This document shows positions 1-4,246 of a DNA stretch of 4,246 nucleotides, piece after piece. The DNA is from a virus (taxonomy: Duplodnaviria > Heunggongvirae > Uroviricota > Caudoviricetes). A model generated the notes under the pieces. It made no database searches. It had not been told where the DNA came from and worked only from the letters and a program-made list of their open reading frames with translations. Numbering within the stretch: the stretch's first letter is position 1; every line of letters starts with the position of its first letter. Made by a program: the position numbers and the translations under genes. The stretch spans positions 1 to 4,246 of IMG/VR virus record IMGVR_UViG_2778261504_000015. One strand, written 5' to 3'.

Positions 1-408
1 CTGGTCGGCGGAACGGTGGTCAGGCGTAAGGTTTACGCCCGTTTTCTGGATGCGGTGAACTTCGTCAACGGAAACAGCGATGCCGATCCGGAGCAGGAGG
101 TGATCAGCCGCTGGCGCATCGAGCAGTGCAGCGAACTGAGCGCGGTCAGTGCCTCCTTTGTACTGTCCACACCGACGGAAACGGATGGTGCTGTTTTTCC
201 GGGGCGCATCATGCTGGCCAACACCTGCACCTGGACCTATCGCGGCGATGAGTGCGGTTATAGCGGTCCGGCGGTCGCGGATGAATATGACCAGCCAACG
301 TCCGATATCACGAAGGATAAATGCAGCAAATGCCTGAGCGGTTGTAAGTTCCGCAATAACGTCGGCAACTTTGGCGGTTTCCTTTCCATTAATAAACTTT
401 CGCAGTAA
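1..408 (+). CDS. L: Phage minor tail protein L (tail tip complex), C-terminal 135 codons; 5' end lies upstream of the window
   Basis: Frame 1 is open from nt 1 to TAA at 406-408. The translation (...RRKVYARFLDAVNFVNGNSDADPEQE...CSKCLSGCKFRNNVGNFGGFLSINKLSQ) matches my recollection of the lambda gpL C-terminus, including the cysteine-rich segment. The track ORF 16..408 begins at an internal GTG; the true start is outside the window. It sits immediately upstream of K-I-J, as in lambda. Confidence 0.9.
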   Translation: MVGGTVVRRKVYARFLDAVNFVNGNSDADPEQEVISRWRIEQCSELSAVSASFVLSTPTETDGAVFPGRIMLANTCTWTYRGDECGYSGPAVADEYDQPTSDITKDKCSKCLSGCKFRNNVGNFGGFLSINKLSQ

Positions 409-418
409 ATCCCGGTTT

Positions 419-1162
419 ATGACACAGACTGAATCAGCGATTCTGGCGCATGCCCGGCGGTGTGCGCCTGCGGAGTCGTGCGGCTTCGTGGTGAGAACGC
501 CGGAGGGGGAGCGGTATATCCCTTGTGTGAATATCTCTGCAGAGCCGGAGGCGTATTTTCGTATTGCACCGGAAGACTGGCTGCGGGCAGAGATGCAGGG
601 GGAGATTGTGGCACTGGTCCACAGTCATCCCGGTGGTCTGCCCTGGCTGAGCGAGGCCGACCGGCGGCTGCAGATAAAAAGTGCACTGTCCTGGTGGCTG
701 GTCTGCCGGGGGGAAATTCATAAATTCCGCTGTGTGCCACATCTGACAGGACGGCGCTTTGAGCACGGGGTGACGGACTGTTACACGCTGTTCCGGGATG
801 CATACCATCTGGCGGGAATTGATATGCCGGATTTTGAGCGTGAGGATGACTGGTGGCGTAACGGTCAGAACCTTTACCTGGACAATATGGCGGTCACCGG
901 CTTTTACCGGGTGCCCCTGTCCTCTGCACAGGCGGGCGATATCCTGCTGTGCTGCTTTGGCGCATCGGTGGCCAATCATGCCGCCATTTACTGCGGCAAC
1001 GGTGAACTGCTTCACCATCTGCCTGAACAACTGAGTAAACGGGAGAGGTATTCCGAAAAATGGCAACGACGAACGCATTCTGTCTGGCGTCACCGCCACT
1101 GGCACGTATCTGCCTTCACGGGGATTTGCAACGATTTGGCCGCCGCCTCAGCCTGTATGTGA
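419..1162 (+). CDS. K: Tail tip assembly protein K: N-terminal JAB/MPN (JAMM) metalloprotease-like domain plus C-terminal NlpC/P60 (C40) cysteine peptidase-like domain, 247 aa as called
   Basis: ATG at 419 gives MTQTESAILAHARR..., 10 nt after the L stop, ending at TGA 1160-1162. A JAMM motif H-S-H-x7-S-x2-D (HSHPGGLPWLSEAD) is encoded at 620-661. NlpC/P60-like catalytic residues are Cys in GVTDCYTLF (codon 779-781), His in ANHAAIY (977-979) and the following LLHH. The track start at 371 is a TTG inside L and is not preferred. No obvious Shine-Dalgarno precedes 419, so translation may be coupled to L. Confidence 0.87.
   Translation: MTQTESAILAHARRCAPAESCGFVVRTPEGERYIPCVNISAEPEAYFRIAPEDWLRAEMQGEIVALVHSHPGGLPWLSEADRRLQIKSALSWWLVCRGEIHKFRCVPHLTGRRFEHGVTDCYTLFRDAYHLAGIDMPDFEREDDWWRNGQNLYLDNMAVTGFYRVPLSSAQAGDILLCCFGASVANHAAIYCGNGELLHHLPEQLSKRERYSEKWQRRTHSVWRHRHWHVSAFTGICNDLAAASACM
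1041..1048 (+). promoter_or_regulatory. Shine-Dalgarno for I (GGGAGAGG), embedded in K coding sequence
   Basis: Purine-rich GGGAGAGG lies 11 nt upstream of the I ATG at 1060. Confidence 0.5.
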
Positions 1163-1740
1163 ACACGGCAGCGGAAGCCATCCGTGCCCTGTCGATGCAG
1201 ATGCCGGGCTTTCGCCGTCAGATGAACGAAGGCTGGTACCAGATACGTATTCGCGGTGAGGACACGGCACCGGAGGCGGTGTACGCCCGTCTTCACGAAC
1301 AGCTGGGTGAGGGAACGGTCATCCACATTGTGCCGCGACTGGCCGGGGCCGGAAAAGGTGGACTGCAGATTGTGCTGGGGGCGGCAGCCATCGTGGGCTC
1401 TTTCTTCACTGCCGGGGCAACGATGGCGTTATGGGGTTCAGCCCTGGCAGCCGGTGGTTTTTCTGCCACCACGATGCTGTTTTCACTGGGGGCCAGCATG
1501 ATACTGGGTGGTGTGGCTCAGATGCTGGCCCCGAAGGCTAAAGTACCGGAGTACAAAAGCACGGATAACGGCAGACAGAACACGTACTTTTCCTCGCTGG
1601 ATAACATGATTGCACAGGGGAACCCGATGCCGGTGCCTTACGGTGAAATGCTGGTTGGCTCACGGCGAATCTCCCAGGACATCAGTACCCGTGATGAAGG
1701 CGGTGACGGGAAGGTGGTGGTTATCGGGCGGCAGGCATAA
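1060..1740 (+). CDS. I: Tail assembly protein I (ubiquitin-like N-terminal domain, Gly/Ala-rich hydrophobic C-terminal region), 226 aa
   Basis: ATG 1060 to TAA 1738-1740. The translation (MATTNAFCLASPPLARICLHGDLQRFGRR...GGLQIVLGAAAIVGSFFTAGAT...NGRQNTYFSSLDNMIAQGN...) resembles lambda gpI as I recall it. GGGAGAGG at 1041-1048 is a plausible Shine-Dalgarno. The start lies inside the 3' end of K in a different frame. Confidence 0.88.
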   Translation: MATTNAFCLASPPLARICLHGDLQRFGRRLSLYVNTAAEAIRALSMQMPGFRRQMNEGWYQIRIRGEDTAPEAVYARLHEQLGEGTVIHIVPRLAGAGKGGLQIVLGAAAIVGSFFTAGATMALWGSALAAGGFSATTMLFSLGASMILGGVAQMLAPKAKVPEYKSTDNGRQNTYFSSLDNMIAQGNPMPVPYGEMLVGSRRISQDISTRDEGGDGKVVVIGRQA

Positions 1741-1741
1741 A
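1734..1741. repeat. Left copy of 8-bp direct repeat GGCATAAA (includes the I stop codon)
   Basis: GGCATAAA at 1734-1741 and again at 1944-1951, bracketing about 210 bp. An 8-bp match could be chance. Confidence 0.3.
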
Positions 1742-1744
1742 AGC

Positions 1745-1777
1745 GAAAAAATCCCGCAGTGACCGAAGGCTGCGGGA
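1745..1777 (-). terminator. Putative intrinsic terminator for minus-strand transcription (hairpin followed by T-run on the minus strand)
   Basis: Perfect 8-bp inverted repeat TCCCGCAG (1752-1759) / CTGCGGGA (1770-1777) with a 10-nt loop. On the + strand it is preceded by AAAAAA (1746-1751), which on the minus strand is a T-run right after the stem. No T-run follows it on the + strand. Confidence 0.35.
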
Positions 1778-1784
1778 ACAGAAA

Positions 1785-1880
1785 ATGAAGATTAACCACA
1801 GGGAGTTTTGTTTTTATTGGCCCGAAAAAACTGTAACGCCCGGGAATGATATCTGCCACGGGGGCGTACAGAAAATGTGA
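1785..1880 (+). CDS. Hypothetical 31-aa small ORF inside the intergenic segment (MKINHREFCFYWPEKTVTPGNDICHGGVQKM); very low confidence
   Basis: ATG 1785 to TGA 1878-1880, with a weak GGGAA a few nt upstream. It is below the ORF track size cutoff, has no recognisable motif and is not hydrophobic. It lies between the two hairpins and upstream of the + strand terminator. Confidence 0.12.
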   Translation: MKINHREFCFYWPEKTVTPGNDICHGGVQKM

Positions 1881-1910
1881 AGAAATTCAGAAATTTTATT
1901 CCGTCATGAC

Positions 1911-1941
1911 ACAGGCACCCTCCGGGGTGCCTGTCGTTTTT
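1911..1941 (+). terminator. Rho-independent (intrinsic) terminator, + strand
   Basis: Perfect 10-bp inverted repeat ACAGGCACCC (1911-1920) / GGGTGCCTGT (1925-1934) around a 4-nt loop TCCG, followed by CG then TTTTT (1937-1941). Read directly from the sequence; stability was not computed. Confidence 0.65.
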
Positions 1942-1943
1942 GG

Positions 1944-1951
1944 GGCATAAA
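1944..1951. repeat. Right copy of 8-bp direct repeat GGCATAAA
   Basis: Exact match to 1734-1741; sits immediately after the + strand terminator T-run. Confidence 0.3.
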
Positions 1952-1956
1952 CAGAT

Positions 1957-1970
1957 TCAGACATCAGACA
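1957..1970. repeat. Perfect tandem heptamer TCAGACA x2, preceded by a degenerate third copy ACAGAT (1951-1956)
   Basis: TCAGACA at 1957-1963 and 1964-1970, read directly, ending immediately upstream of the J Shine-Dalgarno. Confidence 0.5.
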
Positions 1971-1980
1971 GGAGAGGGGG
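1971..1980 (+). promoter_or_regulatory. Shine-Dalgarno for J (GGAGAGGGGG)
   Basis: Strong purine-rich block ending 5 nt upstream of the GTG at 1986. Confidence 0.6.
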
Positions 1981-1985
1981 ACAGA

Positions 1986-4246
1986 GTGGGTAAAGGTGGC
2001 GGCAAGGCGCACACGCCGGTTGAGGCAAAGGACAATCTTAAGTCCACGCAGATGATGAGCGTGATTGATGCCATCGGTGAGGGACCGGTGGAAGGTCCGG
2101 TGAAGGGGCTGCAGAGTATTCTGGTGAACAAAACCCCGCTGACGGACACGGACGGTAATCCTGTGATACATGGTGTGACAGCGGTCTGGCGCGCCGGGGA
2201 GCAGGAGCAGACACCGCCGGAAGGTTTTGAGTCATCCGGCTCTGAAACCGCACTGGGCGTGGAAGTGACGAAGGCAAAGCCGGTGACGCGCACCATTACG
2301 TCCGCGAACATTGACCGCCTGCGGGTTACCTTCGGGGTGCAGTCACTGGTGCAGACCACCTCACAGGGTGACCGTAACCCGGCATCCGTCCGCCTGCTGA
2401 TTCAGCTGCAGCGTAACGGTAACTGGGTGACGGAAAAGGATGTCACCATTAACGGCAAGACCACCTCACAGTTCCTCGCTTCGGTGATTCTGGATAATCT
2501 GCCTCCCCGCCCCTTTAACATCCGGATGGTCAGGGAGACGGCGGACAGCACCACGGACCAGCTGCAGAATAAGACGCTCTGGTCGTCATACACCGAAATC
2601 ATCGATGTGAAACAGTGCTACCCGAACACGGCGATTGTGGGGCTGCAGGTGGATGCGGAGCAGTTTGGCGGTCAGCAGATGACGGTGAACTACCATATCC
2701 GCGGTCGCATCATTCAGGTGCCGTCAAACTATGACCCGGAAAAACGCACGTACAGCGGCATCTGGGACGGCAGCCTGAAACCGGCATACAGCAACAACCC
2801 GGCCTGGTGCCTGTGGGACATGCTGACTCACCCGCGCTACGGCATGGGAAAACGTCTGGGGGCGGCAGACGTGGACAAATGGGCGCTGTATGCCATTGCG
2901 CAGTACTGCGACCAGACGGTGCCGGATGGTTTCGGGGGCACAGAGCCGCGGATGACCTTTAATGCGTACCTGTCACAACAGCGTAAGGCGTGGGACGTTC
3001 TCAGTGATTTCTGCTCGGCGATGCGCTGTATGCCGGTATGGAACGGCCAGACGCTGACGTTCGTTCAGGACCGCCCGTCGGATGTGGTGTGGCCGTACAC
3101 CAGCAGCGATGTGGTGGTGGATGATAACGGCGTGGGGTTTCGCTACAGCTTCAGCGCCCTGAAGGACCGCCACACGGCGGTGGAGGTGAATTACACCGAC
3201 CCGCAGAACGGCTGGCAGACCTCCACGGAACTGGTGGAAGACCCGGAAGCCATACTGCGCTACGGGCGCAACCTGCTGAAGATGGATGCGTTCGGTTGCA
3301 CCAGTCGCGGTCAGGCCCACCGTGCCGGGCTGTGGGTAATAAAGACCGGACTGCTGGAAACGCAGACGGTGGATTTCACGCTCGGGTCACAGGGGCTGCG
3401 TCACACACCCGGTGACATTATTGAAATCTGTGATAACGACTATGCCGGGACCATGACCGGCGGACGTATCCTGTCCATCGATGCCGCCAGCCGCACCCTG
3501 ACACTGGACCGTGAGGTGACCCTGCCGGAGACAGGTGCCGCCACGGTGAACCTGATTAACGGCAGCGGTAAGCCGGTGAGCGTGGCCATCACTGCACACC
3601 CCGCGCCGGACCGGATACAGGTCAGCACCCTGCCTGATGGTGTGGAGACATACGGTGTATGGGGACTCTCCCTGCCGTCACTGCGTCGTCGCCTGTTCCG
3701 CTGTGTCTCCATCCGGGAAAACACGGACGGCACCTTTGCCATCACGGCGGTGCAGCACGTACCGGAAAAGGAAGCCATCGTGGATAACGGGGCCAGCTTT
3801 GAGCCGCAGTCAGGCACCCTGAACAGCGTCATCCCTCCGGCAGTGCAGCACCTGACGGTGGAGGTGAGCGCAGCTGACGGTCAGTATCTGGCGCAGGCGA
3901 AATGGGACACGCCGCGGGTGGTGAAGGGCGTGCGCTTCAGTCTGCGCCTGACCAGTGGAAGCGGTCAGGACAGCCGTCTGGTGACCACCGCCATCACCGC
4001 GGATACAGAGCACCGTTTCAGCGGTCTGCCGCCGGGGGAATACACCCTGACGGTCAGGGCAATTAACAGTTATGGCCAGCAGGGCGAACCGGCCACCACC
4101 ACCTTCCGGATTAACGCGCCAGCAAAACCCGCCACCATTGAACTGACACCGGGCTATTTTCAGATAACGGCGGTCCCGCGTCTTGCGGTGTATGACCCGA
4201 CGGTACAGTTTGAGTTCTGGTTTTCGGAGACAAAAATCGCAGACAT
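1986..4246 (+). CDS. J: Host specificity protein J / central tail fiber (tail tip attachment protein), N-terminal ~753 codons; 3' end beyond window
   Basis: GTG at 1986 is preceded by the strong Shine-Dalgarno GGAGAGGGGG (1971-1980). It is the first canonical start after the in-frame stop TGA at 1878-1880. The translation [39 protein letters not shown]... stays open to the window end and closely resembles the lambda gpJ N-terminus as I recall it. It is absent from the ORF track only because it has no stop within the window. Confidence 0.92.

Follow-up and report, generated by a model that had tools for sequence, protein, structure and literature searches.

The two TCAGACA heptamers in front of the tail tip gene J of a lambdoid prophage are the short form of a tandem repeat that carries 2 to 8 copies in related prophages. 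They were read in a 4,246-nt stretch of DNA (IMG/VR record IMGVR_UViG_2778261504_000015, positions 1 to 4,246), hereafter the window. The heptamers are probably a near-neutral, expandable linker in the J leader, A/C-rich and unpaired, whose length varies by slippage. The original prediction had offered two roles for the repeat, a binding site for a regulator or a copy number that varies by slipped-strand mispairing; the second has held up, with copy number differing by whole units among relatives, but the first has not.

Genes of the window and the start of J

The window comes from an EHEC/Stx-family lambdoid prophage and covers its tail-tip part, ending 753 codons into J (Table 1). Gene I probably starts at ATG 1060, which gives it the same 103-nt overlap with K as in lambda. 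PGAP begins gene I in relatives at the equivalent of GTG 1159, a start that cuts into the Lambda_tail_I domain, since Pfam places the beginning of that domain at residue 15 of the version counted from ATG 1060. The I-J spacer is 245 nt long in the phage family of the window and has no annotated gene. The 321 bases around the repeat were matched in 856 of 5,426 complete E. coli genomes, at a median of 6 places each, with 100% identity in several genomes and at least 99% in 118; the repeat region was also found in Stx1a-, Stx2a-, Stx2c- and Stx2d-converting phages. Within the J coding region, Tandem Repeats Finder reported an imperfect 11-nt repeat, CGGTGAAGGAC, with 2.8 copies at 2075-2106 (an 11-letter stretch of the protein).

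Table 1. Features of the window, with coordinates, strand and the evidence for each.
Feature	Position	Strand	Evidence or remark
End of L	16-408	+	ORF list, Pfam
K	419-1162	+	ORF list, Pfam
Tail assembly gene I	1060-1740	+	Pfam Lambda_tail_I, E 5.5e-16; ORF list
Antisense intrinsic terminator, CCCGCAG-CCTTCGGTCA-CTGCGGG, A, TTTTTT	1746-1776	-	Sequence read, terminator scan, RNAfold
Approximate antisense sRNA body (putative), variable region	1777-1840	-	Estimated from ~85-nt Northern size and peak position (Tree 2014)
Conserved block AAATGTGAAGAAATTCAGAAATTTTATTCCGTC	1872-1905	.	Common to leader classes A-D; once per cassette in multi-cassette spacers
Terminator-like hairpin ACAGGCACCC-TCCG-GGGTGCCTGT, then CGTTTTT	1911-1941	+	Terminator scan
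ACAGAT, degenerate heptamer-like unit, left boundary of the array	1951-1956	+	Invariant in relatives
(TCAGACA)2, simple sequence repeat, 2-8 copies in relatives	1957-1970	+	Sequence read, pattern search
Shine-Dalgarno region GGAGAGGGGG, best pairing register GAGGGGG at 1973-1979	1971-1980	+	Duplex with 16S 3' end
Gene J, tail tip attachment / host specificity protein	1986-4246	+	GTG start; runs off the window

The start of J is GTG (1986-1988) and not ATG, as originally proposed, and four lines of evidence agree on it. In the J frame, no ATG, GTG or TTG lies between TGA 1878-1880 and GTG 1986. In E. coli O26 11368, the PGAP annotation of J begins at the corresponding base, and residue 1 of the J product aligns with residue 1 of lambda J, with 71% identity over 65 amino acids. 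Pfam finds FNIII-A_GpJ, Phage-tail_3 and Ig_J, so that the product has the domain set of a lambda-type tail tip protein J as well as an N-terminus collinear with that of lambda.

The Shine-Dalgarno sequence had been called strong, and the duplex between GAGGGGG, 4-5 nt before the GTG, and the 16S 3' end bears this out at -11.1 kcal/mol (lambda J, -6.8 kcal/mol). Among leaders with near-identical J N-termini, both GTG-start classes, A and D, have the strongest Shine-Dalgarno sequences (-11.1 and -10.8 kcal/mol), against -4.5 to -7.4 kcal/mol for ATG-start leader variants and lambda, which suggests that a strong Shine-Dalgarno compensates for the GTG start.

A variable heptamer repeat in the J leader

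The repeat, TCAGACATCAGACA, occurs once in the window on the + strand (sequence read and pattern search), and the original placement of TCAGACA-TCAGACA at 1957-1970, after ACAGAT and directly against the Shine-Dalgarno sequence, is correct in every coordinate. A two-copy repeat of this kind is not significant by itself, because 23% of 2000 dinucleotide-preserving shuffles of the window hold an exact 7-mer tandem pair (mean 0.26 per window); Tandem Repeats Finder, run on the window, did not report the heptamer pair. These numbers would suit a chance duplicate, a fixed and invariant 14-mer without significance, a reading that is contradicted by 2-8 perfect copies at this exact site in relatives and that we now hold very unlikely. 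Among 1.66 Mb of fetched DNA, mostly from prophages, all 156 heptamer arrays lie at J leaders and none (0/156) elsewhere. The repeat thus goes beyond chance, both because its copy number varies and because all 156 arrays share one position. An 18-mer scan of genome contigs returned 20 matches that we put down to chance, all of them single-unit, from unrelated taxa and with no J-type Shine-Dalgarno after them. In the searchable literature, the 14-mer led to no paper describing the tract.

The original prediction had proposed comparing copy number across relatives and had set invariance against itself. For this comparison, IMG/VR was searched with the invariant Shine-Dalgarno-to-start sequence, and complete E. 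coli genomes were searched with synthetic 1-, 3- and 4-unit queries. Alleles of 2 (the most common), 3, 4, 5, 6 and 8 copies were seen across E. coli genomes, Stx phages and IMG/VR, and invariance was not. The IMG/VR loci comprised 84 with 2 units, 5 with 3 and 2 with 4, and all loci on metagenome contigs (41/41) had 2. Three units were present in 14 E. coli records, and in ~107 E. coli genomes a match extended over at least 80% of the 4-unit query; O157:H7 genomes contribute many of the 4-unit alleles, with one flank mismatch. At least 5 units were present in 5 E. coli records, four of which were read and have 5, 5, 6 and 8. More than 3 units were found in 10 of 58 records of deposited phage genomes, including phages 1717 and YYZ-2008. 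Phage 2851, the one of these ten that was read, has exactly 4 units and the flank variant ACCGAG, in a spacer that otherwise equals that of the window.

Every unit is perfect in the 3-8-copy alleles that were read, and length always changes by whole 7-nt units. Four flank haplotypes each occur with more than one copy number, and one of them has 2, 3, 4, 5, 6 and 8. Perfect head-to-tail units that differ between alleles by whole units on the same flanks are what characterizes a simple sequence repeat or VNTR. Given these 2-8 perfect whole units and the several copy numbers per flank haplotype, the array appears to be a slippage-prone simple sequence repeat; the polymorphism is seen directly in the alleles, and slippage is the mechanism that we infer from it. 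Instability would be expected to be greater once the tract is longer. The heptamer tract is not a high-frequency phase-variation tract, because the window and ~90% of its relatives carry just 2 units, short of the length for frequent reversible switching within a clone that marks a contingency locus.

A 1-unit allele was found in none of the 719 E. coli records that contain the leader (~716 genomes, ~2300-2400 places). This absence is noteworthy, since contraction from two units to one should be at least as easy as expansion. One explanation would be that function requires at least two copies, and a need for a minimal length or for an enhancer would be compatible with it. Since identity by descent accounts for many alleles, as with the 4-copy allele across many O157:H7 genomes, allele counts say little about selection.

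Upstream of the array, the hairpin at 1911-1941 has the form of an intrinsic terminator, with a 10-bp stem (7 G-C pairs), a 4-nt loop and a U-run. It is kept in leader classes A-D, where 97% of cells are paired, and is lacking in classes E and F. Covariation in the hairpin is statistically unsupported, because the one compensatory change is a C-G to U-A exchange that 275 of 500 shuffles also reach. This hairpin could block read-through in lysogens and be passed by Q-modified polymerase, or it could be a 3' stabiliser of the upstream message. The T-run and G-run that follow it (1935-1946) are themselves length-polymorphic among relatives, with the forms TCGTTTTTGGGG, TTGTTTTCTGG, TTGTTTTTGGG and TTGTTTTTTGGG; the TTGTTTTTGGG form is present in 3 of the 4 haplotypes that have expanded heptamer arrays.

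The heptamers and translation of J

Predicted folding in three sequence contexts left the array 0.6-0.7 unpaired for all copy numbers. The predicted unpaired probability of the Shine-Dalgarno and G-run stayed at ~0.7, flat for n = 1-8, in a thermodynamic model that is blind to effects acting via ribosomal protein S1, Hfq, ACA-type enhancer motifs or RNases. Shine-Dalgarno accessibility was lowered in these predictions solely by complete removal of the array, and solely in the full-spacer context. Since predicted accessibility is equal for 1 to 8 copies, an effect of copy number on J expression is not favoured by the folding model. Added units also leave the distance from Shine-Dalgarno to start unchanged.

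These results bear on the possibility that heptamer number acts as an expression rheostat, a contingency locus that sets the amount of J through ACA/CA-rich enhancer units or through the distance between ribosome-binding site and hairpin. Phage lineages would then have heritable, slippage-driven variation in tail-tip protein dosage, like that given by the hmw1A repeat of Haemophilus influenzae, where expression is inverse to repeat number (PMC12721329). We regard this as unlikely, while granting it some weight. The polymorphism is real and recurrent on several haplotypes, down to a single lineage with 2, 3, 4, 5, 6 and 8 copies, and the 1-copy allele is missing from ~2300 places; the units, A/C-rich and each containing one ACA, immediately precede the Shine-Dalgarno. 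Yet the two units carried by ~90% of copies are too short for frequent slippage, predicted Shine-Dalgarno accessibility is constant over n, and an hmw-type long hairpin between the repeat and a downstream G-rich arm is not predicted for any n. Close relatives moreover work without any repeat: leader classes B-D, with J N-termini 96-100% identical, lack it, as do classes E and F, yet keep the hairpin and the Shine-Dalgarno, and have a single TCACAGTA-like element after the hairpin at the place of the array.

The same leader was examined for signs of a trans-acting factor, whether a protein, Hfq, GcvB or an adjacent EcOnc22-like antisense RNA, that would control J translation from the repeats. 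Direct repeats that abut a Shine-Dalgarno invite such a reading, and in EHEC Hfq is reported to bind A-R-N motifs at Shine-Dalgarno sites, and CA-rich leaders are targets of GcvB (PMC4104026); a gene for an Hfq-bound sRNA would also lie ~150 nt away in the same spacer. However, GcvB pairing with the leader was no better than with shuffled leaders (R1, p = 0.38-0.68; R3, p = 0.10-0.24). Pairing between the antisense RNA and the J initiation region (UUCUGUUCCC with GGGGACAGAG), which had looked good by eye, gave energies equal to those of shuffled RNA (p = 0.54 and 0.57). In the 1.66 Mb of mostly prophage DNA, the single heptamer occurs outside J leaders at about its expected frequency, and this lack of enrichment argues against an operator of a regulon. 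Operators typically recur at other regulated sites, or match a known motif, in fixed number and spacing, whereas the heptamer arrays lie at J leaders alone in this DNA and their copy number is variable; the 7-nt spacing of the direct repeats would also not be in helical phase. Rfam, run in E-value mode on the whole window, gave two chance-level matches elsewhere and nothing in 1741-1985. A sigma-70 promoter scan of 1600-2100 on both strands returned none, and a check by eye for -35/-10 pairs created by the heptamers gave nothing convincing. A regulatory role for the heptamers thus has no support from the folding, motif, promoter, Rfam or sRNA-pairing tests, and a trans-acting factor site in particular seems to us quite improbable.

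Each added unit shifts the upstream reading frame by +1, and at n = 4 with this flank an upstream TTG at 1940-1942 comes into the frame of J, raising the prospect of a frame-dependent N-terminal extension encoded by the repeats. In phage 2851 (FM180578; L281 327; n = 4) J is in fact annotated from this TTG, in the T-run of the terminator, a start made possible by the 4 units that bring it into frame, and the n = 8 allele, with a G-run one base shorter, is open from the TTG through the array. The TTG, however, sits in the U-run just after the terminator hairpin with no Shine-Dalgarno before it, while a strong Shine-Dalgarno precedes the GTG, the codon that matches residue 1 of lambda J. In the window, where n = 2, the TTG is not in the frame of J, and PGAP uses the GTG in the 5-, 6- and 8-copy alleles inspected. 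The TTG start in phage 2851 is probably an annotation artefact, and an extended J is the reading to which we give least credence, as extremely unlikely. The tract is nonetheless an annotation trap wherever 4-copy alleles place the upstream TTG in the J frame.

A putative antisense sRNA cassette between I and J

On the opposite strand, an intrinsic terminator read from 1776 to 1746 comes directly after the stop codon of I. The terminator scan flags its T-run region on the - strand, and RNAfold of the antisense strand gives the same hairpin. Position and strand suggest that a cassette for an EcOnc22-like antisense sRNA has its 3' end at this terminator. Homologous Hfq-bound sRNAs, EcOnc22, EcOnc23 and EcOnc24, are listed for the Sakai prophages Sp15, Sp14 and Sp11, respectively, in Table S2 of Tree et al. 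2014, in which EcOnc22 alone has a Northern entry (~85 nt) and a Δhfq entry (destabilised). As late as 2021 they were listed without known targets. The three sRNAs run antisense to the tail genes, with coordinates within I-J spacers. Those coordinates refer to an older genome version, and a shift of +122 to +149 nt was estimated from AgvB1, StxS and HnrS. Once this shift is applied, the Hfq peaks fall ~150-225 nt upstream of J, at the antisense terminator next to I and the stretch that precedes it. Placing the Table S2 coordinates directly on NC_002695.2 had put EcOnc22 on the heptamers, a mapping that the shift of +122 to +149 nt rules out.

By position and strand, the cassette of the window would correspond to EcOnc22-24, with the same terminator and the same block at 1872-1905 and a different middle. 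Sp15 and other relatives have unrelated sequence in place of the stretch at 1777-1840, and the sequence between the block and the antisense terminator is mosaic. The block could serve the antisense sRNA as a promoter or UP-element region; a check by eye for -35/-10 elements of an antisense sRNA promoter gave nothing convincing. A small ORF on the + strand at 1785-1880, MKINHREFCFYWPEKTVTPGNDICHGGVQKM after GGGAACAGAAA, is probably no gene, and only its first four codons (MKIN) are conserved. In Sp15, MKIN is followed by an unrelated 39-aa sequence, and we did not treat the ORF as a gene because neither its frame nor its sequence is conserved in Sp15 and other variants. Two further groups of sRNAs were set aside: the anti-sRNAs AgvB and AsxR, considered in view of the CA-rich sequence, are located at the PR' moron site instead, and the multicopy prophage sRNA HnrS (EcOnc10-12) belongs to a different locus.

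Some prophages hold two, three or four cassettes in tandem in the I-J spacer (for example IMG/VR loci L092 and L035), each consisting of an antisense terminator, ~70 nt of variable sequence and the conserved block AAATGTGAAGAATTTCAGAAATTTTATTC. A multi-cassette spacer resembles a row of different antisense sRNA genes. In E. coli JNE151685 (L187 8129-9084), the spacer is 956 nt long with no annotated gene and contains the 8-unit heptamer array.

Discussion

The reading that we prefer is of two TCAGACA units as a short simple sequence repeat in the untranslated J leader of an EHEC/Stx-type lambdoid prophage. In this leader the hairpin and U-run (1911-1941) would be followed by an unpaired A/C-rich stretch, then GAGGGGG, then GTG. 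The stretch is G-poor, is made up of GGGGCAUAAACAGAU and the heptamers, and is unpaired in the predictions. One unit was probably duplicated to form the array; at that place, related leader classes show just one TCACAGTA-like element. The length of the array would then change by replication slippage in whole 7-nt units, giving rise to the 2-8-copy alleles. The effect on J translation is most likely small, since the distance from Shine-Dalgarno to start does not change and no pairing of the Shine-Dalgarno with the units is predicted; the linker would be near-neutral or, at the very most, would mildly adjust how far the hairpin stands from the ribosome-binding site. Near-neutrality is what the comparisons and folding models point to, and the consequence of the heptamer tract is likely small.

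Even a neutral tract would be of use as a small polymorphic marker by which near-identical lambdoid prophage tail modules can be told apart. That Stx-converting and related EHEC prophages use the tract as a heritable dial on J translation, turned by slippage, is in our estimate rather improbable. In that case, each A/C-rich unit would change ribosome loading beside the hairpin, two copies would be the functional minimum, and lineages with 4-8 copies (those of the Stx2c phage 2851 type and the four-cassette dusA prophage) would make different amounts of J. If copy number tunes J, the host-range protein of a phage would be under contingency control by a simple sequence in E. coli. To our knowledge, simple-sequence contingency loci are scarce in E. 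coli, and such a dial would be a rare case of this kind of regulation both there and for a phage structural gene.

The I-J junction of EHEC prophages emerges from the analysis as an insertion point for one to four Hfq-bound antisense sRNA cassettes. In the biology of this spacer, the cassette and its amplification in tandem are more notable than the heptamers.

Comparison with known systems

Lambda has the same gene order as the window, and a hairpin and T-run likewise stand at the same place shortly before the J ribosome-binding site. The lambda I-J spacer differs in being 60 nt long and in having an ATG start, a weaker Shine-Dalgarno (-6.8 kcal/mol) and an unrelated hairpin sequence, and it has neither heptamers nor an antisense sRNA cassette.

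Translational enhancers of the C/A-rich or ACA kind, located upstream of the Shine-Dalgarno, are targets of GcvB. The J leader resembles such enhancers in being A/C-rich and G-poor, with repeated ACA directly 5' of the Shine-Dalgarno (background partly from PMC4104026). Unlike the enhancers that GcvB targets, it does not contain the CACAACA consensus, and its pairing with GcvB is not above chance.

In the H. influenzae hmw1A and hmw2A leaders, the number of (ATCTTTC)n repeats inversely sets adhesin expression (PMC12721329). The J leader shares with them a 7-nt unit in a transcribed leader, a gene for a surface or receptor-binding protein, and a slippage-type polymorphism (PMC12721329). The hmw tracts, however, have at least 11 units, form with a G-rich arm a long hairpin that RNase III cleaves, and affect expression inversely, as has been measured (PMC12721329), whereas the J leader has 2-8 units that are predicted to be unpaired. 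Because of these differences, we place the tract among the ordinary simple sequence repeats rather than treat it as a demonstrated contingency locus.

With shift-corrected peaks ~150-225 nt upstream of J, clear of the heptamers, EcOnc22, EcOnc23 and EcOnc24 share with the window the same I-J spacer, the same phage family and an orientation antisense to the tail genes.
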